From a phage, in the sequence record PX880103.1: a stretch of 64,000 nt of DNA; one strand, 5' to 3'. Each line of letters begins with the position of its first letter. Position 1 is the stretch's first letter. Positions 11,574 through 25,611 of this stretch are shown piece by piece. A model generated the notes under the pieces. The model ran no database searches. It was not told the DNA's origin and saw nothing but the letters and a program-made list of their open reading frames with translations. The position numbers were made by a program, and so were the translations under genes.

Positions 11574-13390
11574 TACTGGCTCATCCATTCTTTACGAAGG
11601 TCAGCATTATCTCCCATGAGCATTTCAAAAAGCTCTTTCCAGTTCTCAGGAAGTTTAACAACATCATATACTGGGTTTTGAATCATCTCACGATATTCAG
11701 ATTTTTCCAAAGAGCCAAGTCCTTTAATATAACGGATGCTATGTTTAGGTAGAGCATCTTTGGCACTCTCATATTCAGCGACTGTATAAAACCATTCTTG
11801 TTTTTTACCGACCTGAGCGATGATTACAGGAGTTTTGACAAAGCGAATTCTTCCTTGTTCAAACAGTTCTGGCCAATTACTAAAAAATCCGAGCAGAGAA
11901 GGATAAATGCTTCCTAGACCATCATGGTCAGCATCAGTCATAATAGCAATATTATGATAATTCAAGTTTTCAGCTTTTTCACCGAGAACTAATCCAGTGA
12001 TTGCGCAAATATCAAATAGTTCTTTGTTTTTAAGCATATCGGCATATGACATACCCCAGCTATTAAGAACTTTACCGCGTAATGGATAACCACCGTGAAG
12101 TTCTTTATCACGAACATCAATAAGATATCCGATAGCAGAATCACCCTCGGTTAAGAACAATGTAGTGTCAGCATCTTTACCGCAAAGATTCGCTTTAATA
12201 TGTTTATGAACCTTAGCTTTAGAAGCCTTTTTAGCTGCTTTAGTTTCTGCTGCTTTTTCTGCTGCCAATTTACGAGCTAATGCTGCTTCAATAATTGGCA
12301 TTAGAATTGCTTCATTATTTAGAATAGCGCGTGAAATCTTTTTAGCATCAAGTTGAATATGACTACGAATTTCACCAAATGGAGAAGTCAAACGCTCTTT
12401 AGTTTGAGAGTCAAATCGCATGTTTTTCATATCGCGAACAAACATAACGATAGTCAAACATTCTTTAACACGTGCTTTAGTCACATCAATTTTGAACTTA
12501 CGTTTGATTTGTGGAATAAGGTCTTCACAAATATCATCCATAACACAGTCAATGTGATGGCCACCATTCTTAGTATGAATGTTATTGACGTATGTTAATT
12601 GACGAAAACCATCCGGTGAACGACCAACCGCAATAGAACAATTTTCTTGTTCTTGAACGATAGCATGTTCATCATATTGGCGTGCGTATTTCTTAAAATT
12701 ACCCTGAACCTTTTTACCATTAAAGGTAAATTGAATATCAGGATAAACAACAGCAAGTGTTTGGAGACGATCTAGTGTAATGTCAAGATAAACTTGGGAC
12801 AGCTCATTAGTTTCAAATGACATAAAATCAGGAATGAAAGTAACACGGGTTCCTTTCCATTTTCCAGGAATATCTTCCCATGATTTATTTTCCATGCCGT
12901 TTGAACAACGAACTACAATATTATTTTGACCATCGCCAGTTTCACCAACAAACATCACAGAAAAAATGTTTGTCAAACTAGAACCAACACCATTCATACC
13001 GCCAGTGACGCGTTCTTTATCATCACCAAAGTTACCACCTGCTTTTGGAATAGTCCATGCAGCAACAGGACCAGGAATTTCTTCACCGGTAGGTGTTTTA
13101 ACCATTGCCTGCGGAATACCACGACCGTTATCTTCAACTGTTACTTGATTGTTTTTAATAGTAACATTAATTTTATTTGCGAATTTAAACTTAGTACGAA
13201 TACCTTCATCTACTGAGTTATCGATAATTTCATCAATAAGCTTAACAAGACCAGGTACATACTGAACACTTTCCCATTTACCAAACAGAAAGCGCTCATG
13301 CATTTCATTAGCAGAAGAGCCAATGTACATGCCGCTACGCTTTTTGATATGTTCAATATCGCTCAGAATTTTAATTTCATTCTTAATCAT
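11573..13390 (-). CDS. 39: DNA topoisomerase II large (ATPase) subunit, uninterrupted gene 39
   Basis: 605 aa from ATG at 13390 (track adds a GTG codon); N-terminus MIKNEIKILSDIEHIKKRSGMYIGS as in T4 gp39; continues through the region that is gene 60 in T4. Confidence 0.9.
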   Translation of the reverse strand: MIKNEIKILSDIEHIKKRSGMYIGSSANEMHERFLFGKWESVQYVPGLVKLIDEIIDNSVDEGIRTKFKFANKINVTIKNNQVTVEDNGRGIPQAMVKTPTGEEIPGPVAAWTIPKAGGNFGDDKERVTGGMNGVGSSLTNIFSVMFVGETGDGQNNIVVRCSNGMENKSWEDIPGKWKGTRVTFIPDFMSFETNELSQVYLDITLDRLQTLAVVYPDIQFTFNGKKVQGNFKKYARQYDEHAIVQEQENCSIAVGRSPDGFRQLTYVNNIHTKNGGHHIDCVMDDICEDLIPQIKRKFKIDVTKARVKECLTIVMFVRDMKNMRFDSQTKERLTSPFGEIRSHIQLDAKKISRAILNNEAILMPIIEAALARKLAAEKAAETKAAKKASKAKVHKHIKANLCGKDADTTLFLTEGDSAIGYLIDVRDKELHGGYPLRGKVLNSWGMSYADMLKNKELFDICAITGLVLGEKAENLNYHNIAIMTDADHDGLGSIYPSLLGFFSNWPELFEQGRIRFVKTPVIIAQVGKKQEWFYTVAEYESAKDALPKHSIRYIKGLGSLEKSEYREMIQNPVYDVVKLPENWKELFEMLMGDNADLRKEWMSQ

Positions 13391-13417
13391 CACTTATCCT
13401 CGTTTGGTTTCGGGAAT

Positions 13418-13443
13418 ATTATACTCCAGTAATCATAAAGCTA
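13418..13443 (-). promoter_or_regulatory. Middle-promoter-like element (MotA-box-like TAGCTTTA, 12 bp, TATAAT) upstream of gene 39
   Basis: Minus strand cctTTAGCTTTATgattactggagTATAAT directly after the 13443-13460 hairpin; one mismatch to the TGCTTtA core. Confidence 0.45.
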
Positions 13444-13460
13444 AAGGCCCGAAGGCCTTT
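13443..13460 (-). terminator. GGCCCGAAGGCC hairpin
   Basis: aaaggcc-cgaa-ggccttt; follows the stop of the lipoprotein gene. Confidence 0.5.
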
Positions 13461-13720
13461 TATTTAAAACGAATAGTCGAATCCTTGAAGAATAGTCCAG
13501 AACATACTGTTCCTTCTACTTTCTGCCCGGTAGGTCCAATAGCACGAAATCCAGTATGTTGGAAATCATTTTCAGAGCAACCGAACCAGTTATATCCAGT
13601 GATTTCAATATTAGTAAAACCACTTGAAGACAAAACTTTGGTTGCATTATCAGCATCAGTACATCCTACTAAAGACACTACTAATACTAATGCTGCGATA
13701 GAACGATTAATATATTTCAT
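13460..13720 (-). CDS. Putative lipoprotein (86 aa, 39.1 position)
   Basis: From ATG at 13720 (track start is GTG): MKYINRSIAALVLVVSLVGC, signal peptide with lipobox LVGC. Confidence 0.55.
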   Translation of the reverse strand: MKYINRSIAALVLVVSLVGCTDADNATKVLSSSGFTNIEITGYNWFGCSENDFQHTGFRAIGPTGQKVEGTVCSGLFFKDSTIRFK

Positions 13721-13725
13721 AATTT

Positions 13726-14097
13726 TCACTTAAATTTAATGGCTTGAAGAAGACTAATAACTCTCAAGCGGCTTCTTTCATCTTTAACTGTAAAGGAAAG
13801 AGGGTCACCAGATTTCATAGTGATAGTGCATCCAAAATCAAAATTTTCGGGAACTTCTTCGAAGAAGTCAAATTCTTCAGCATAAATTAGAACATTACTC
13901 TGCATACTGTGAAGAATTTTTCCATTATTTCCAGACGCTGTACTAATCATCGTAACATTATGACCTTTCATATCTTCAACGATAAATTCGCTTGTAGATA
14001 TTACAGCATTAATAGAACCATTCCTATAAATAGCAGACATTAGATATTTCTTTTCTTCGCCTTCGCGAATACGATATTTCTTACCGATTTTAAACAT
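13726..14097 (-). CDS. Hypothetical protein (123 aa, 39.2 position)
   Basis: ATG at 14097 (track start is GTG). Confidence 0.5.
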   Translation of the reverse strand: MFKIGKKYRIREGEEKKYLMSAIYRNGSINAVISTSEFIVEDMKGHNVTMISTASGNNGKILHSMQSNVLIYAEEFDFFEEVPENFDFGCTITMKSGDPLSFTVKDERSRLRVISLLQAIKFK

Positions 14098-14099
14098 AA

Positions 14100-14276
14100 T
14101 CACCCTTTAAGTAAGTCGTAAAAACCACCATTCACATGCTTAGGAGCAGAAGGCCGACGAGTAGACAAACGATGACATTTAGGGCAAACATCATTTTCTC
14201 GTTCAGAAATCTTTTTAATTTTTTCATATTCATGCCCGCAATCTTCGGATTGGCATTTATAATCATACATTGGCAT
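14100..14276 (-). CDS. Small zinc-ribbon protein (58 aa)
   Basis: Below track cutoff; MPMYDYKCQSEDCGHEYEKIKKISERENDVCPKCHRL..., CxxxxC...CxxC; fits exactly between flanking genes. Confidence 0.5.
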   Translation of the reverse strand: MPMYDYKCQSEDCGHEYEKIKKISERENDVCPKCHRLSTRRPSAPKHVNGGFYDLLKG

Positions 14277-14278
14277 AA

Positions 14279-14698
14279 TTATTCCTTAAAGTGAGCTTTC
14301 AACATCTGATACAAGGACCATGCTTGTTCATTATTTTCAATAGTAACTTTCATTACCGGGAATTCTGTGAAATCTTCTATTTGTTCTTGCTCTTCCTGCT
14401 CTTGTTCTTCAGCAGCCTGATATGGATTTTCAACTTCATCAAAGAACCCAGCTTCGTTAGTAGAGAGCCAGATAAAGTTTTCGTCAAGGATATCACCGCC
14501 GGCACAGCGTTTGAGTACACCTATGGATGTCATAATTTTAGTAGGACGCCCAAGATAATCAGCATCTAAAATTTTAAAAGGCTCCATACCTAAACGTCGT
14601 GCATAGATTCCGTTATCAGTATGGTCTTTAATAAAATTTTCTTGAGCTTGTTTATTTTTAAATTGATACCATTTATTAACTTCAAATTTAATAGCCAT
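14279..14698 (-). CDS. Hypothetical protein (139 aa; goF position)
   Basis: Size and position match T4 goF (about 141 aa) from memory only; acidic C-terminal tail. Confidence 0.5.
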
Positions 14699-14913
14699 TA
14701 ATAAATTTCCTTCCAGTAAGTTGTGCCGTCTTCAGTAATTTCACGAAATACACCGTAAATTGGCTGTTTATCACCGACTTTCTCATACACATAAACAGAA
14801 GTCAAGTGAGTAAACTTGCTAGTATGTTCCTTTTGAACTACTACCAAGTCTGGATCGAATAATACATCTTCAAATTCGTCATTAGTGCAGTTTTGAACAA
14901 TTTTACGTTTCAT
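14698..14913 (-). CDS. Hypothetical protein (71 aa; cef position)
   Basis: Size and position match T4 cef; GAGGAAA SD. Confidence 0.5.
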
Positions 14914-15012
14914 TACAATTTCCTCATTAATTGAACATTGGAGCGATGCGTTTCAGAAGAGTATCAACACCTTTAGCGAATTTTCCATTTTATTCTCCGA
15001 GTTGTTTTCTGT

Positions 15013-15055
15013 ATCAGTAGTTGATATTGATATAGTACCATAATCAACTACTGAT
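15013..15055 (-). promoter_or_regulatory. Atypical promoter inside a perfect 13-bp inverted repeat (atcagtagttgat / atcaactactgat)
   Basis: The loop carries TGGTACTAT (-10-like); followed by the conserved leader and GGAG; no canonical GTTTAC. Confidence 0.4.
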
Positions 15056-15085
15056 GTATATAGTTTTATGAAAAAATTTTAAACT

Positions 15086-15574
15086 TTATGCATAGAGAGC
15101 ATTGCTATAGTGTTTAATCCAACTTTCAGGAATGACTTTGTATGTTCCTAAAAATACCACGTTGTACAACTTAACGCCATCTTCTACCCATTGATCGGTA
15201 ATGTATCCACACATAGCGCGAGTATAAGCAGCCTTTCCATCATCTTTGATAAATTTAAATTCGCAAGGAGCAATGAACTTAATAGCTTGACCGAGTTTCC
15301 ACTTAAAGTCTACACCTACATGCGAAGTATCAATCGTTTCAATTCCTTTAGCGGGAACAGCTTTCAAAAACGCAGATTCAAGAAATTTCGCGCGAACATA
15401 ACCAAACTGGGGTTTAGACTTTCCATCTTTAGGAATGATACGAACTTTTACTTCAGAATCTTCATCTTTAACGCCATGCTTAAGCTGAATGCTTACAATT
15501 TCGACCAATTTTCCTGCTGCTTTAGAACGGGATTTATCAGATACACGAGCAATTTCACCAATATTAATAATCAT
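15086..15574 (-). CDS. motB: MotB-like DNA-binding protein (162 aa)
   Basis: Size and position (next after cef) match T4 motB; lysine-rich; ATG confirmed. Confidence 0.55.
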   Translation of the reverse strand: MIINIGEIARVSDKSRSKAAGKLVEIVSIQLKHGVKDEDSEVKVRIIPKDGKSKPQFGYVRAKFLESAFLKAVPAKGIETIDTSHVGVDFKWKLGQAIKFIAPCEFKFIKDDGKAAYTRAMCGYITDQWVEDGVKLYNVVFLGTYKVIPESWIKHYSNALYA

Positions 15575-19802: not shown

Positions 19803-20549
19803 TTATCCTCGGATAAGTTTAAAAATTGAACAATTTAGCGGGTATCCTCTTTTCAGTTTAAGTTTATCAATAAAAGACAAATTTTGATACCGCTCTACAC
19901 CTTGAATAATTTTATCACACATATCATATTGCATTTCTGCTTCTGACAACTTTTTCACAATTTTCCAATCCGAGCCTTTAAGAAGAACGTTCAATTTAAC
20001 AACTTCAGCACCTTCAGCTATGCGAGAACCATCAATACGTGCTTTAAGTGCTATAATTCTTAGCTTAATGTCAGAGGTCTGTTTTGATTTAGAAAGCTGA
20101 GAAATGTGCTCAATTCGGTTTTCACGTTTTTTCTGTATAGCTTTAATTTGATTATAAGTCTTTTTGATTTTAGCCCATTTCTTTTCATCTAAATTTAGTT
20201 TATGAACTTTTTTCGCAGATGAACGACCAATTCGCAAAGCAAACAAATCACGCTTTTCGATCAACTCTTCTAAAGTATAATCAGAACGAAATGTATTATA
20301 CTTTTTCTTTACTGCAATAACATTCCCTTTAATGTATCCAACGTTATTATCAAAACGTTCTAATGATAATTTCTCTCCTTCAATACGATTATCAAAAGGT
20401 TCTCCTGAATAGGCACAAACTTTTTGATCTAAAATGTTCTTAATGTAATTGAAGTCTAAGTTAAAATCTTTAGAACGTCTTTTTGCAGATGCCTGAGTAT
20501 GCTCTAAACGACGTTTAATTTTACGAATTTGATTATTAGACAGCTTCAT
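19803..20549 (-). CDS. srd: Srd-like basic protein (248 aa)
   Basis: Position between dda.1 and modA and size fit T4 srd (from memory, unverified); very lysine/arginine rich. Confidence 0.45.
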   Translation of the reverse strand: MKLSNNQIRKIKRRLEHTQASAKRRSKDFNLDFNYIKNILDQKVCAYSGEPFDNRIEGEKLSLERFDNNVGYIKGNVIAVKKKYNTFRSDYTLEELIEKRDLFALRIGRSSAKKVHKLNLDEKKWAKIKKTYNQIKAIQKKRENRIEHISQLSKSKQTSDIKLRIIALKARIDGSRIAEGAEVVKLNVLLKGSDWKIVKKLSEAEMQYDMCDKIIQGVERYQNLSFIDKLKLKRGYPLNCSIFKLIRG

Positions 20550-20585
20550 ATTTTTCTCACATCTTACGGACGGTTAACTACTTAT

Positions 20586-20615
20586 ACTATAACATTTTTA
20601 CTTTAACTTGTAAAC
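20586..20615 (-). promoter_or_regulatory. Early promoter (GTTTAC-N18-TATAGT) for srd
   Basis: Minus-strand GTTTAC at 20610-20615 and TATAGT at 20586-20591. Confidence 0.6.
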
Positions 20616-20629
20616 AACTTTATGAAAAA

Positions 20630-20654
20630 TGCTTTAAAACTTTCATGGTATAAT
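20630..20654 (+). promoter_or_regulatory. Plus-strand middle-promoter-like element (TGCTTTA, 12 bp, TATAAT), antisense to modA
   Basis: aTGCTTTAaaactttcatggTATAAT read on the plus strand; points into the 3' end of modA. Confidence 0.35.
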
Positions 20655-20671
20655 GAATCTAAGTCCTTCCA

Positions 20672-21274
20672 TTATAGATTAAATCCTTCAAAATCAAGAG
20701 TATAGATAGTGTATGTTGAATACTTTTTGTACTCATATCTGTCTGCAATTCTAAATACACTTCCAGCTGGTATCATTACTTCTTGTTCATCTGAAACTAA
20801 TTCCATATTACGATAACGATGGCTATCCGGAAACTTAAAGTTTGGATTGTATTCTTTACAGCGTAGAGCTTTTATAGCATACTCCTGGAAATTGAATACC
20901 ATAGGAGCTTTGAATTCAAAAATAACTTGTGTGTTATACTCTAAACCGGAAGCAAAATGTAGAGCTATATTTTTATCATATGAAGCTGATACTACTTTAT
21001 CAAATGTAATAATATCAATTCCTTGATTTAATACTTGTTTAGTCTCAGCTGGAACACCTCTCCAAAGAGGTTTATCGTTTGGAACCAAACGAGATTTGAT
21101 TATTTCATTTAACCAAGAATGATCGTCTGGTTTATTAGTAATACAATGAATTAAAAGTTCAATTTCAGATAAATTAAACCCTTCAGAAAGTAATTCTTCA
21201 CGAATAGAAGCACGCACCGATGCATCCATTGATTTTATTTTAAAATCTTTTAGTTGCATTACTGAGTATTTCAT
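20672..21274 (-). CDS. modA: ADP-ribosyltransferase ModA
   Basis: 200 aa as in T4 ModA; adjacent paralogue modB; ATG confirmed. Confidence 0.8.
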   Translation of the reverse strand: MKYSVMQLKDFKIKSMDASVRASIREELLSEGFNLSEIELLIHCITNKPDDHSWLNEIIKSRLVPNDKPLWRGVPAETKQVLNQGIDIITFDKVVSASYDKNIALHFASGLEYNTQVIFEFKAPMVFNFQEYAIKALRCKEYNPNFKFPDSHRYRNMELVSDEQEVMIPAGSVFRIADRYEYKKYSTYTIYTLDFEGFNL

Positions 21275-21894
21275 TCAACTACCTCAATATCATAAACTTT
21301 AAATGTTCCAAATGAATCGTGTAATTTTTCTTTTGAAATAGAAGTTATTCTATACTTTCCAATTGGAATCATCCATTCTTGTTCACGCACAATCATCATT
21401 AAGTTATCAGTACGCTCTGAATCTAGCCCATCAGTATCTTCATATGTGTACTTAAACTCAGTATTAGGAGAAGAAAGTATAATATCGCTGATATGGTCAG
21501 AATAATTAAAAGCTTTATTAGTTTTTAAGCGAAGTATTATTTTAGTAAAATATTCAGCATAAGAAAAAGAACATGCTGTGAGCAAACTAGTAGTAAATGA
21601 ATCTACTCTATTCGTTGAAAACACTTCTCCAACTTGTAAATCTTTAATAAGTTCTTCTGTTGATTTTGATATACCACGATATAACTGATAAGGCGATTTA
21701 GTTAAATGCTTTTTAATGATTTTATTCAACTGCCTATGAAGAGCTTCATTCTTTTTGGCTTCCATACATTGCCAAAGAATGGATTGTTCAAAGTCGGTAA
21801 ATTTTTCACAGACCTTTTTATACATATCATATTGAAAATCGACGCTTTCAGCTTTTATAGATAACTGTTCAACATCTGTAAGATTAATAATCAT
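21271..21894 (-). CDS. modB: ADP-ribosyltransferase ModB
   Basis: 207 aa as in T4 ModB; GGAGG SD; ATG confirmed. Confidence 0.8.
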   Translation of the reverse strand: MIINLTDVEQLSIKAESVDFQYDMYKKVCEKFTDFEQSILWQCMEAKKNEALHRQLNKIIKKHLTKSPYQLYRGISKSTEELIKDLQVGEVFSTNRVDSFTTSLLTACSFSYAEYFTKIILRLKTNKAFNYSDHISDIILSSPNTEFKYTYEDTDGLDSERTDNLMMIVREQEWMIPIGKYRITSISKEKLHDSFGTFKVYDIEVVE

Positions 21895-21920
21895 GATAGC
21901 CTCCGTATACTTCAGAAGCT

Positions 21921-21950
21921 ATCATATCATCGTTAGAAAGGAAAGTAAAC
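21921..21950 (-). promoter_or_regulatory. Early promoter (GTTTAC-N18-TATGAT) for modB
   Basis: Minus-strand GTTTAC at 21945-21950 and TATGAT at 21921-21926. Confidence 0.55.
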
Positions 21951-21961
21951 AACTTTTTGAA

Positions 21962-22144
21962 TTATTTTGCCCAGGGAGCCCAGGGCGGAGGGTCAAGATG
22001 GTATGAAGCTAGTTCTTCTAGAAGAGCATCTGGGGCTTCAATTCCATAATTCTGTAATACTATACGGTACTCTTTCTTATAATCACTAGAATCATTCTGG
22101 ATATTCGTAGTATGATTATCTTCTAACATCTCAAATAAATCCAT
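21962..22144 (-). CDS. Hypothetical protein (60 aa)
   Basis: ORF track; ATG confirmed; proline/tryptophan-rich C-terminus (PPPWAPWAK). Confidence 0.45.
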   Translation of the reverse strand: MDLFEMLEDNHTTNIQNDSSDYKKEYRIVLQNYGIEAPDALLEELASYHLDPPPWAPWAK

Positions 22145-22152
22145 ATTAATTC

Positions 22153-22623
22153 CTAGCGATAAAAACCAAAATGACGATTAGCTTCAATAATCTTTCTTTC
22201 TTCTTCGGACATTCTCCAGCGTAGTCCAACATCAAAATGAGCCCAGACCATCTTAACAAATGCGTGTATGTCTTTAATATCTTCAATAATGAATGTTTTA
22301 CTTTTCGAAGGTTGACTCGCTAATTTAACTTTATCATCTTCAAACAGGTCAAAAAGACCATATTCATGAGCTCTTTTATAGCCTTTAATAATTAAAGCTT
22401 CAGAAGAAGAAAACGGTGAATCAGTATTCTGCAAAATATCTTCAGTATGCTTTATAATTAGAATAACATTTTCTGGATATTTTCTTTCTTTTATATCTTT
22501 AATTAAAATATCCGGATTTTCTGCTAAAGGAATAATTAATGAACAATTTTTATCAAGCGTATTTACTGATTTACCTTCTTTAGACATAAATTCTATTGAA
22601 TAATGTTTTGCTACTTCAATCAT
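22153..22623 (-). CDS. Hypothetical protein (156 aa)
   Basis: ORF track; ATG confirmed. Confidence 0.5.
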
Positions 22624-22768
22624 GTGATTTCCTTTTGCCTACTAATGGACCGTCAGGAATTTTGTTTTCCTGGATATATTTCTCATTTTCTTCCATCATT
22701 TTACTGCCAATTTTAAGAAGCAAATCCATTGCTTCATTTGCTTTAGCTTTAGCCTCTTCTAACGTCAT
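22616..22768 (-). CDS. Hypothetical small protein (50 aa)
   Basis: Below track cutoff; [33 protein letters not shown]...; overlaps next start by 8 nt; weak SD. Confidence 0.3.
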
Positions 22769-22776
22769 ATCTCTGT

Positions 22777-22980
22777 TCACGATTTATCCCCATAGATGTC
22801 TCTCATTAATTTAAGCGCTGAGCGTTCTAATTTCTTTTCTTTCTCAGCACTAATCATTGATTTCATCCATTCTTCTGATTCGTTCTGCATTTCTTTATTT
22901 GCTTGTTCAATCCAACCATCATCAATATACATTGAGTTTGGTCTATTGAACCATTCAAGAATCTTCTTGAGAGCTTTCAT
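22777..22980 (-). CDS. Hypothetical protein (67 aa)
   Basis: ORF track; ATG confirmed. Confidence 0.5.
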
Positions 22981-23440
22981 TTGTTTTACCTAAAACGATA
23001 GTATGGACACCGTCAAATTCATGAATTTTTAGCAAATTTGGATTTAAATTATTCCATAAAGAGGTAATAAAATATGATAGCGCACTTTCGTCCGTAATTA
23101 TAAATTTATTTCCTTTATCTATTTTCCAATCATATATTGAATCGTATGAATAGAAGGATAACGGTTTATTATTATAGTATGCTTCAGCAACATCAATATA
23201 GTTAGATTTAGTAAATGCTTGAATTGCCATAAATGGAGAATTTTGTACAGTTTCAATAATTCCGATCTTTTTAAGTTTTATTTCAACATCTTCTGGAACT
23301 GGCATTGAAATAAAATCTTCTACTAGATACATGTCATTGTCATATCTTTTATCAATCATTACTGCTACTGTAATTGGAACATCCTTGACAAACGCCATAC
23401 TAATACTATTGATAGACATTTCAAACAAAATCGCTTCCAT
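22955..23440 (-). CDS. Hypothetical protein (161 aa)
   Basis: ATG at 23440 with GAGGAAA SD (track start at 23473 overlaps upstream ORF). Confidence 0.5.
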
Positions 23441-23448
23441 AATTTTCC

Positions 23449-23787
23449 TCAATCGCAAGATGTAGATGAACAACTAGAATCACAAGAACTTCCACATGAA
23501 TCGCCCGTCCATACATGAACAGGAACATTAGTATCATATGAATCAGAACTAGACTGTGTATTCTGCGTATTAGATGATGTAGGTGTTGACCAGCGCCAAG
23601 GATTTTTATAATATTCTTGGGCTTCTTCATAAGTCATAGTAACTGCTTCTACTGTTCCATCTCCCATATAAACATATTCAACTACAGTTAAAGGAAGATA
23701 GTCATTTGAAATAGGAACTACACCTTCCCCAGGAGTCGTAGAGAAAAAATCCGTAAAGAAACTTTTAAACCAATTAAAGATAAACAT
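23449..23787 (-). CDS. Hypothetical protein (112 aa) with Ser/Cys-rich C-terminus
   Basis: C-terminus ...[20 protein letters not shown] preceded by a Ser/Thr/Gln-rich linker; ATG confirmed. Confidence 0.5.
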
Positions 23788-23993
23788 TACAAAAAGCCTC
23801 TTTTGAATTCGACTTGCTTCTCACCATAATCATACCGAATCTCTGCATTAAACTCAACAGAACCATCTGCGTACATCATAAATGAATGCACGACAACTTC
23901 TGTAGACCATGGTTGCAATTCATATTTCTTCATTACATGCCGTGAAATGATAATATCTAAATCTTCATTTGGTTTAATCCAACGATTTAACAT
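23787..23993 (-). CDS. Hypothetical protein (68 aa)
   Basis: ATG with GAGGAGAG SD, downstream of the 24020-24049 promoter. Confidence 0.5.
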   Translation of the reverse strand: MLNRWIKPNEDLDIIISRHVMKKYELQPWSTEVVVHSFMMYADGSVEFNAEIRYDYGEKQVEFKRGFL

Positions 23994-24019
23994 AGTGCTC
24001 TCCTCTATAAGATAATTCT

Positions 24020-24049
24020 ATTATACCATACTCATTTTGGAAAGTAAAC
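24020..24049 (-). promoter_or_regulatory. Early promoter (GTTTAC-N18-TATAAT)
   Basis: Minus strand GTTTACtttccaaaatgagtatggTATAAT. Confidence 0.65.
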
Positions 24050-24065
24050 CAGTAAAATGAAAAAA

Positions 24066-24083
24066 GGACTCCCGAAGGAGTCC
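24066..24083 (-). terminator. Hairpin plus T-run after soc
   Basis: ggactcc-cgaa-ggagtcc followed on the minus strand by TTTTTTCATTTT. Confidence 0.65.
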
Positions 24084-24091
24084 TTAAATTA

Positions 24092-24328
24092 TTAACCACC
24101 TATTTCTGTAGGGGTAAACATTGCAGCATTCTTAGTTTTCCAATCAGCTGCATCAGAAACTACGGTAGAATATGCTGCCTTTTCAGAAGGAAAGATCTGA
24201 TAATGAGAATCTGCGATACGATGCTCGTTAGAATAAATTTCAAACGGAACAGAAACTTCCATACCTTTAACTTCTTTGCCTTCACCTGCTGGATGAGTAA
24301 AGGTCTTGATGTTAACGAAACCACCCAT
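24092..24328 (-). CDS. soc: Small outer capsid protein Soc
   Basis: 78 aa; resembles T4 Soc (GFVNIKTF...EGKE..AHYQIFPSEKAAYSTV). Confidence 0.8.
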   Translation of the reverse strand: MGGFVNIKTFTHPAGEGKEVKGMEVSVPFEIYSNEHRIADSHYQIFPSEKAAYSTVVSDAADWKTKNAAMFTPTEIGG

Positions 24329-24370
24329 AATAAACTCCTTTATTGTTTAATTACAGGTGTATTTATATCA

Positions 24371-24889
24371 TCAATAACCTCGGTCTTGACGAGCGAAGTT
24401 TTCAGCATTTTTCAGATAATAAAGTTTAAAGATTTCTTCAGCCGTAAGACCGAGACCTTGGAACATGTTCAGAACGAAATGAAGAATATCAATCATTTCG
24501 AATTTAATTTCCAACTGGTCTTGTGGAGATAAGTCAGTAATCAGAGTTTCACGACGTTCACCGTGTTGCGACTTCCAAGGCTTCCATACAGCAGATGCAT
24601 CTTTTTCGCCATTGCTCATACCACCAAGAGAAGTCAGAAGTTCGCGGAATTCATCATCAATATAATCTTTCTGATTACGCAGCCAATCAACAACTTCACC
24701 TGCAGTAGCCAAATCATCAGGATGACGGTTATATTCAGGTTTATCTTTAGCTAAACGAACCTGCAGAGATTTCTGCATATCAAGCATAACTTGCAACGGA
24801 TCTTTTTCATCACCGAGAATATCCCAGTATTCATTTTGAGCTTTATCAGCGCCTTCGATCAGTTGACTACATTCGTTGAAATGTGGCAT
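24371..24889 (-). CDS. 56: dCTP pyrophosphatase (dCTPase/dUTPase) gp56
   Basis: 172 aa as in T4 gp56; MazG-like acidic motifs; ATG confirmed. Confidence 0.85.
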   Translation of the reverse strand: MPHFNECSQLIEGADKAQNEYWDILGDEKDPLQVMLDMQKSLQVRLAKDKPEYNRHPDDLATAGEVVDWLRNQKDYIDDEFRELLTSLGGMSNGEKDASAVWKPWKSQHGERRETLITDLSPQDQLEIKFEMIDILHFVLNMFQGLGLTAEEIFKLYYLKNAENFARQDRGY

Positions 24890-24890
24890 G

Positions 24891-25541
24891 TTATTTTTCC
24901 TTTCTTATGAAGTTTTCTATCATATGTCTATAGCAGATATTAGGATAACCTGCCTTGACAGCTATTTTATTAAATTTTGTGCGCTTAGGTCTATTATTAT
25001 AAACCCATAATTCATAAAGCGCATCATAACTATTCCATATTTCTCCTCGCCTAGGATTTGGTAAACCATATCGAGGTGAATTTTTACCGCTAAATCTTCC
25101 TTTTCGGGCTTTACTCATATTAGCCTTGGCTTCATCGGATATAATTTTACCTTTATGAGCTAGACGCATTTTGGCTTTAGTTTCTTCTGGGGTCTTTTTG
25201 CCTTTAATCCATGACGGCTTGCCATATCTAGGATTATTTTCACCCGAGAAAAGAACAGAGTTTTGGATTTTAAGGGTTTCTATTAATCTACTTGTTAATT
25301 TAACACCTTTATTATATCGCATTAAATTTACAGCATAATGCAATCCTCTCACATCTGGATATATTTTAGTTAATAATCTATGAGCTATAAAATGCTCACG
25401 CGCAGTTAACTCAACAAGATTGTTTTTGTCATCTGCTCCTCCTATACATCTAGGAATTATATGATGGCGTTCTTTATATCCGCCAAGATGCCGGCATTTA
25501 GCTTTTGTAATTAAAGCCGAGTAAATTTTTTGGTAATTCAC
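24891..25541 (-). CDS. Free-standing HNH homing endonuclease with NUMOD-like repeats
   Basis: GTG start with AAAGGA SD; HNH core GGYKERHHIIPRCIGGADDKNNLVELTAREHFIAH; repeated GxNxPxYGK / K(A/G)K motifs; C-terminus paralogous to 41877..42731. Confidence 0.75.
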   Translation of the reverse strand: MNYQKIYSALITKAKCRHLGGYKERHHIIPRCIGGADDKNNLVELTAREHFIAHRLLTKIYPDVRGLHYAVNLMRYNKGVKLTSRLIETLKIQNSVLFSGENNPRYGKPSWIKGKKTPEETKAKMRLAHKGKIISDEAKANMSKARKGRFSGKNSPRYGLPNPRRGEIWNSYDALYELWVYNNRPKRTKFNKIAVKAGYPNICYRHMIENFIRKEK

Positions 25542-25574
25542 ATATATCCTTTCAATTCATGGGTTAGTAGATTA

Positions 25575-25598
25575 ATTATACAATAAATATATAAAGCA
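25575..25598 (-). promoter_or_regulatory. Middle-promoter-like element (TGCTTTA, 11 bp, TATAAT) upstream of the HNH gene
   Basis: Minus strand tTGCTTTAtatatttattgTATAAT; overlaps the plus-strand AATAAATA box of the divergent small ORF. Confidence 0.45.
25582..25589 (+). promoter_or_regulatory. Late-promoter-like AATAAATA box upstream of plus-strand ORF 25612..25812
   Basis: 7/8 match to TATAAATA, about 22 nt before the ATG; strong AAGGAGGA SD follows. Confidence 0.3.
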
Positions 25599-25611
25599 AT
25601 AAGGAGGACAT

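Follow-up and report, generated by a model that had tools for sequence, protein, structure and literature searches.

The stretch of phage DNA between modB and soc analysed here very likely represents the canonical T4 early cluster mrh.2-mrh.1-mrh-srh-modA.4-modA.3-modA.2 in a Tequatrovirus, as judged from comparison of its genes with those of T4. The block is already known, and annotations of the T4 reference have included it for decades. One of its members, Mrh.1, is a real, selected, and modular small protein, and a sharper description of T4 Mrh.1 is the useful yield of the analysis. All positions given below refer to the window, which is the whole stretch of 64,000 nucleotides of sequence record PX880103.1.

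Layout of the Block

Positions 21962-23993 contain seven consecutive open reading frames, all coding on the minus strand, as found both from the list of reading frames and from the sequence itself. In the direction of transcription soc lies upstream of the block and modB downstream. The genes, in this direction, are the following:

24092-24328, minus strand: soc, flanking gene, Pfam Soc match
23787..23993, minus strand: mrh.2, 68 amino acids, 98.5% identical to T4 Mrh.2, PHROG 1873
23449..23787, minus strand: mrh.1, 112 amino acids, 98.2% identical to T4 Mrh.1, PF23836, PHROG 2031
22955..23440, minus strand: mrh, 161 amino acids, 95.0% identical to T4 Mrh, PF24070, PHROG 1234
22777..22980, minus strand: srh, 67 amino acids, 95.5% identical to T4 Srh, PHROG 2441
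22616..22780, minus strand: modA.4, 54 amino acids from a GTG start, 96.3% identical to T4 ModA.4, PHROG 2681
22153..22623, minus strand: modA.3, 156 amino acids, 94.2% identical to T4 ModA.3, PF24070
21962..22144, minus strand: modA.2, 60 amino acids, 96.7% identical to T4 ModA.2, PHROG 1647
21271-21894, minus strand: modB, flanking gene, 94.7% identical to T4 ModB

The original prediction had described seven reading frames of 60, 156, 50, 67, 161, 112, and 68 codons as filling the space between modB and soc, and this description agrees with the list and the sequence; the length of modA.4 is 50 amino acids if it is counted from the first ATG instead of the GTG. The genes are tightly packed. 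The stop codon of mrh.2 and the start codon of mrh.1 overlap by one nucleotide (TAATG), the end of mrh overlaps the start of srh by 26 nucleotides, the stop of srh overlaps the GTG start of modA.4 by four nucleotides (GTGA), and modA.4 and modA.3 overlap by eight nucleotides. The two remaining junctions, from mrh.1 to mrh and from modA.3 to modA.2, are gaps of eight nucleotides each. Because of this tight packing and the several overlapping ends, the seven genes of the block are probably translationally coupled.

Comparison with T4 and Occurrence in Other Phages

The T4 reference sequence (NC_000866) lists seven genes in the interval from modB to soc, namely modA.2 (183 nucleotides), modA.3 (471), modA.4 (165), srh (204), mrh (486), mrh.1 (342), and mrh.2 (207). 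This T4 cluster (positions 13198-15232, T4p022-T4p028) is like that of the window in its seven genes, their order, strand, and overlaps, and in its flanks, and it has an early promoter and a terminator after soc in equivalent places. The proteins share 94-98.5% amino acid identity across the seven and are of equal length except for Mrh.1, which has 112 amino acids in the window and 113 in T4, the linker in the window having one threonine less. A few further differences were seen. The modA.4 gene starts with GTG in the window and with ATG at the equivalent position in T4, the soc gene of the window is a divergent allele whose product is 42% identical to T4 Soc, and segF, which T4 carries between soc and gene 56, is absent from this place in the window.

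The block was compared to other phages by megablast, which matched 570 phage records; in 498 of these the match spans 80% of its length or more. The best matches were wV7 and the UFV phages (UFV09), with about 97% identity over the region. Even in divergent metagenomic T4-like contigs the gene order soc, mrh.2, mrh.1, srh, modA.4, MRH, modA.2, and Mod ADP-ribosyltransferase is kept, with one or two MRH paralogues. From the match to all seven genes of T4 and the 498 records it follows that the window belongs to an ordinary Tequatrovirus and that the block is standard.

These data bear directly on the idea that the interval is a lineage-specific expansion of accessory genes which is absent from T4 and which brought in a novel cysteine-rich metal-binding protein. 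The idea had its origin in the view that T4 carries no more than three genes, those of the mrh group, at this place, which had no tool support and which the seven genes listed for T4 contradict. All seven occur in T4 in unchanged order, the block is present in 498 records and mrh.1 in 502, so that the probability of such an expansion is practically nil. Comparison of synteny with T4-like genomes, proposed at the same time as a check, recovered the complete set from T4 in the order of the window. Related phages also carry these reading frames with annotated functions in the case of mrh and srh, and in the case of modA.3 by way of its family. The apparent expansion arose from an error about the gene content of T4, and the block has little weight as a discovery.

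Transcription Signals

Four features which may govern expression of the block and of the genes next to it were located:

24064..24085, minus strand: intrinsic terminator of soc, made up of a GC-rich hairpin of 9 bp closed by a UUCG loop and a T-run behind it
24020..24048, minus strand: T4-type early promoter for mrh.2 through modA.2, GTTTACTTTCC ... TG-TATAAT
21921..21949, minus strand: second early promoter, ahead of modB, found as a scan match
21892..21926, minus strand: hairpin over the Shine-Dalgarno sequence and the ATG of modB, found by folding

An early promoter and a terminator hairpin had been predicted to bound the block, and both are present, the promoter reading from 24048 to 24020 and the hairpin from 24085 to 24064. 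The promoter is of the form TTTACT-17-TATAAT with an extended -10 TG, and its hexamers match at 10 of 12 positions in the scan. The terminator hairpin has a folding energy of -15 kcal/mol (z = -4.1), which none of 200 shuffled sequences equalled, and in phage e11/2 a terminator is annotated at the equivalent place. The block would be transcribed by the host RNA polymerase from this T4-type early promoter just past the soc terminator, while modB-modA would be served by the second early promoter downstream of the block. The two promoters form a direct repeat with 72% identity over 32 nucleotides, and this related pair was the sole finding of a repeat search.

The -10 element of the second promoter lies within the 5' arm of the hairpin in the modB leader (21926..21892). 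This hairpin folds with -20.8 kcal/mol (z = -6.9), which drops to -1.4 kcal/mol when the 5' arm is left out, and its arms show compensatory changes in two further loci, L003 and L005. A scan of positions 20500-25600 with Rfam matched no RNA family.

Families and Roles of the Other Genes

Each of the seven reading frames matched a family in PHROGs. Three of the seven matches carry a name, twice that of the Mrh transcription modulator and once "decoy of host sigma32". In Pfam, T4_MRH (PF24070) was matched end to end by mrh (E = 7e-41) and by modA.3 (E = 8e-38), with scores of 139.8 bits for the protein of 161 amino acids and 130 bits for that of 156 amino acids at a gathering cut-off of 24.4. 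Mrh and ModA.3 are distant paralogues with 23% identity. Genetic evidence for a role is available for Mrh alone of the two: according to PMC6070864, which refers to Frazier & Mosig 1990, it modulates late transcription under heat shock and in an rpoH mutant background. Srh matched PHROG 2441 over its full length (E = 6e-40), and its role as a sigma-32 decoy is called "postulated" in the T4 record. Precomputed Pfam assignments of relatives give PF26878 for mrh.2 and PF26838 for modA.2. By the annotations and the literature, the products of the block are accessory proteins of host takeover: Srh, which is sigma-32-like, the two MRH-family paralogues Mrh and ModA.3, and a further four small proteins. 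A scan of all seven reading frames with the PADLOC defence models gave nothing beyond a spurious 12-bit match of Mrh.2 to BrxC.

Family and Architecture of Mrh.1

Mrh.1 is a member of the DUF7206 family (PF23836), which it matches with 98.9 bits at a cut-off of 25.6, residues 3-112 covering positions 1-107 of the 107 positions of the model. To T4 Mrh.1 (NP_049642; DUF7206, PHROG 2031) it is identical at 111 of 113 aligned positions. It occurs in 502 phage records, with an identity of 80% or more in each, and in a set of 1.84 billion representative proteins a profile search yielded only 28 relatives, 96-144 amino acids long. All 28 representatives share the architecture, and reading frame and architecture persist even where identity has fallen to about 31%. 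The coupling of the mrh.2 stop to the mrh.1 start, too, was seen in every locus examined, including the window, T4, L003, and L005.

Four parts can be told apart in the protein. The N-terminus is an amphipathic helix (MIxWLKxLF) with a hydrophobic moment of 0.5-0.8, after which comes the motif (T/K)PGEG(V/M)VPIS common to the relatives. The core, EYVYMGDG(T/M)xEEV, is a beta-hairpin followed by a helix. It is joined to the tail by a highly variable linker, which is rich in Ser, Thr, Lys, and Arg across the relatives and in Ser, Thr, and Gln in the window. The tail has the form ...SSYDSG..SSCDSG..xSCD across the family and is located in the window as follows:

23452..23511, minus strand: tail of Mrh.1, codons 93-112, Ser/Cys-rich C-terminus

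The prediction of a reading frame of 112 amino acids ending in a Ser/Cys-rich tail after a Ser/Thr/Gln-rich linker thus agrees with the sequence. The tail differs from that of T4 in a single residue, threonine 94 in the window versus alanine 95 in T4, right after the tryptophan.

Structure prediction with AlphaFold2 was run with 8 and with 28 sequences, and both runs agree. They suggested a helix at residues 4-14, strands at 34-40 and 46-52, a helix at 53-61, and disorder elsewhere, including residue 62 to the end. The mean pLDDT was 53 with 8 sequences and 60 with 28, with values of 76-83 for the core and 46-50 for the tail. A search of the PDB by sequence gave no match at E <= 1. With Foldseek the model (pLDDT 59.7) matched nothing in the PDB at E <= 0.001, and the matches in BFVD were confined to its own family apart from weak ones to EcS1 and RB69ORF025c. 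As the confidence of the model is low, these Foldseek outcomes weigh little.

Two further relationships were considered and rejected. Mrh.1 and Mrh.2 have a hairpin motif xxDG(T/S)VE in common, which raised the possibility that they are paralogues, and comparison with hhalign yielded a probability of 0.3% and E = 0.18. The N-terminus and the tail were also considered as RiPP-like, clamp-binding, or capsid-targeting elements, and these readings were dropped, as no motif fitted. A search of the main texts of the literature for Mrh.1 (T4p027, P20706) and DUF7206 found nothing relevant.

Selection on the Tail

Rates of nonsynonymous and synonymous change were determined for mrh.1 from eight Tequatrovirus sequences. 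For the N-terminus together with the core, pN was 0.008 and pS 0.116, a ratio of about 0.07. The linker had a pN of 0.114 and a pS of 0.209 (ratio about 0.55) and gains and loses TQN-like units among the eight sequences. In the tail the values returned to a pN of 0.012 and a pS of 0.159, a ratio of about 0.08. By this measure strong purifying selection acts on the tail while the linker is relaxed, so that the tail is taken to be a functional element under selection whose tether evolves freely. The cysteine-rich reading frame is well conserved, and a lack of conservation, which had been named as an observation that would speak against it, is not seen.

The composition of the tail is 42% serine, 14% aspartate, 12% glycine, 9% cysteine, and 7% tyrosine, and it contains no lysine or arginine. 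A terminal Cys-Asp occurs in 27 of the 28 family representatives. Across the family the only conserved cysteines are the one of this motif, at position -1, and one at -7 to -12 from the C-terminus. The tail with four cysteines is confined to the T4 subgroup, and two of its cysteine positions are tyrosine elsewhere. Within the eight Tequatrovirus sequences all four cysteines are invariant in every one, synonymous changes notwithstanding. The local profile search of 1.84 billion proteins found no protein which has the tail alone.

Expression and Knockdown in T4

In the supplement to a time-resolved study of T4 infection (PMC9697503) all seven genes of the block appear as early RNAs, and ModA.3, ModA.4, Srh, Mrh, and Mrh.2 are listed among the proteins detected. 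Mrh.1 is not detected in the proteome table of this supplement, and the essential gp56 is likewise undetected there and given as "NA". Knockdown of T4 mrh.1 by CRISPRi-ART led to its classification as "Semi-Fit" with function unknown (PMC11879866, Supplementary Discussion A). Five mrh.1 guides are contained in the non-fit file of that work, each called "Not Fit". Their scores are small, and clearly above zero in four cases (0.68-1.15). The effect of mrh.1 knockdown is mild. With its selected tail, the two cysteines and the Cys-Asp terminus, the hypervariable linker, and this mild knockdown phenotype, Mrh.1 is a reasonable small target for dissecting the early host-takeover genes of T4.

Possible Functions of Mrh.1

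It has to be considered whether mrh.1 functions as a protein gene at all or whether the tail is an artefact that arises when DNA of low complexity is translated. The low complexity of the sequence and the missing detection of Mrh.1 in the time-resolved T4 proteome would fit an artefact, but essential gp56 is "NA" in the same proteome table. The strong purifying selection on core and tail, the frame and architecture kept to about 31% identity, the coupling of its start with the end of mrh.2 throughout the loci examined, and the "Semi-Fit" outcome of the knockdown all argue against it, and make an artefact highly improbable. For a protein which is real, the reading closest to the original prediction of a metal-binding cysteine-rich tail is a site of four cysteines (C-x3-C-x3-C-x4-C) which would hold zinc or an iron-sulfur cluster and fold only on metal binding. 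In the T4 subgroup the tail is like zinc knuckles and ribbons and metallothionein-like tails in having four close-set cysteines in a short Gly/Ser-rich segment. The invariance of the four cysteines in all eight Tequatrovirus sequences is in line with such a site; so is the tyrosine at two of these positions in distant relatives, which can ligate metal, and the interleaved aspartate. However, with only two cysteines conserved family-wide the site would need dimerisation, and a set of four cysteine ligands conserved across the homologues was not found. In contrast to zinc knuckles and ribbons the tail is dominated by aspartate and serine, has no histidine, and is predicted to be disordered. The Pfam scan of Mrh.1 returned DUF7206 as the sole match and no zinc or iron-sulfur family, no known metal-binding family or fold was recovered from Pfam, the PDB, or Foldseek, and the AlphaFold2 models, in which the pLDDT of the tail stays below 50, contain no organised cluster. 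The spacing of the cysteines, moreover, does not fit the common CxxC knuckles, which also counts against the site. The original prediction of metal binding is neither borne out nor contradicted: the tail is strongly conserved, but only two cysteines are kept family-wide, disorder is predicted, and a match to a metal-binding family is missing. Binding of metal by all four cysteines is unlikely.

A tail so rich in the nucleophiles serine, tyrosine, and cysteine might alternatively be a decoy or pseudosubstrate, or a peptide which is modified post-translationally. An enzyme of host or phage, for instance a kinase, a transferase, or a thiol-disulfide oxidoreductase, would then be sequestered by the tail or act on it. 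The build of the protein, in which a conserved N-terminal module is followed by a variable linker and a conserved Ser/Cys/Tyr tail, resembles a leader followed by a core, and the abundance of serine, aspartate, cysteine, and tyrosine without lysine or arginine also suits this reading. Absence from tryptic proteomics could be expected of a long peptide free of lysine and arginine, or of a modified one. On the other hand, no modifying enzyme is encoded adjacent to the gene in the loci examined, and no similarity to precursor families of modified peptides emerged from the Pfam scan. This alternative is purely an analogy and appears somewhat less probable still than the site of four cysteines.

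The reading which we prefer, though only tentatively, is broader: the tethered tail may be the working end of an early effector, with a metal ion as its ligand or else a host protein that depends on metal or thiols. Searches of Pfam, the PDB, and Foldseek revealed no homology which ties the tail to a metal or a partner. The proposal is weakened in that only two cysteines are conserved, that AlphaFold2 gives no organised site, and that neither the sequence nor the fold finds a match in the PDB. It is weakened further by Mrh.1 not being detected in the T4 proteome and by the listed guides being individually "Not Fit". In this mechanism the acidic tail, made of S-(C/Y)-D-S-(G/S)-like units free of lysine and arginine and finishing in Cys-Asp, would present thiol, carboxylate, and hydroxyl groups for binding to the metal ion or the host protein. 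The N-terminal helix and the core would provide localisation or docking, and the co-translated Mrh.2 possibly acts together with Mrh.1. It is conceivable, at a similarly tentative level, that Mrh.1/DUF7206 represents a type of early effector limited to T4-like phages, in which the tail is either a decoy or a site of metal binding or redox activity; if true, the weak effect of T4 mrh.1 knockdown on fitness would be explained.

Leader region of modB

An early promoter and a hairpin precede modB and were located by a promoter scan and by RNA folding:

21892-21949, minus strand: early promoter and hairpin before modB

On folding, the hairpin reached -20.8 kcal/mol (z = -6.9) and was found to bury the Shine-Dalgarno sequence as well as the ATG of modB, and the -10 element of the promoter lies within its 5' arm. 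RNAs begun at this promoter would be devoid of the 5' arm, and a leader lacking this arm folded to -1.4 kcal/mol. As the arm would be absent only from promoter-started RNAs, transcripts reading through from upstream may not be translated into the toxic ModB protein. Sequence comparison showed co-variation of the hairpin arms in two T4-like contigs from Logan metagenomes (L003 and L005).

Start of modA.4

22778-22780, minus strand: GTG start codon of modA.4, overlapping the srh stop codon as GTGA

In T4 this start codon is ATG and the overlap reads ATGA. In the window, a GGGG Shine-Dalgarno-like run is located 7 nt upstream of the GTG. The length of 50 codons in the original prediction is correct when counting from the next in-frame ATG, but the gene begins earlier, at the GTG.

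Variation of the block and of Mrh.1

All relatives of Mrh.1 with less than 80% identity came from uncultured T4-like contigs of the Logan metagenomes (L003, L004, and L005); none occurred in a collection of 50,697 phage genome records. One MRH paralogue is absent from L003, and in L005 both stand side by side downstream of modA.4. The related phage e11/2 (NC_024125, 1854-3134) has mrh broken into two coding sequences and retains a mere 99-nt remnant of modA.3, so that single genes of the block can decay, in line with the view that the modA.2-mrh.2 genes can be dispensed with in the laboratory.

Compared to the window protein (23449-23787), some Tequatrovirus variants of Mrh.1 carry an insertion of about 52 amino acids in the linker (…AGNVGAGALPLNSKKLKEHLDSRR…TAPIITATAVSSW), examples being P0003 from Escherichia phage 235Ecol030PP and the fPS-90 protein in BFVD (164 amino acids each). 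As this insertion matches the linker found in remote members of the family, P0011 among them, the sequences suggest either that T4-type Mrh.1 is a deletion derivative or that the linker is swapped by recombination.

The soc region

24092-24370: soc region
24367..24360: late-promoter motif TATAAATA near soc
24891-25541, minus strand: HNH/NUMOD3 homing-endonuclease-like reading frame (216 amino acids), directly upstream of gene 56

Soc of the window shares only 42% identity with T4 Soc, with genes on either side being 94-99% T4-like. It appears to be a mosaic allele of the kind called RB69-like in the annotation of the close relative wV7. T4 has the homing endonuclease gene segF between soc and gene 56, whereas the window lacks segF there. 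The stretch of soc, gene 56, and endonuclease is covered to at least 80% in only 40 of the 793 matching phage records, mostly Yersinia phages fPS-2 and PYPS2T.

Gene names in public records

Wrong labels for homologues of 21962-22780 have spread among public records. In many GenBank phage records, homologues of modA.2, modA.3, and modA.4 carry the label [quoted passage not shown]; the bacterial gene name modA is the probable source of this mix-up. In the T2 record they appear as "prohead core scaffold protein" and "baseplate hub subunit and tail lysozyme".
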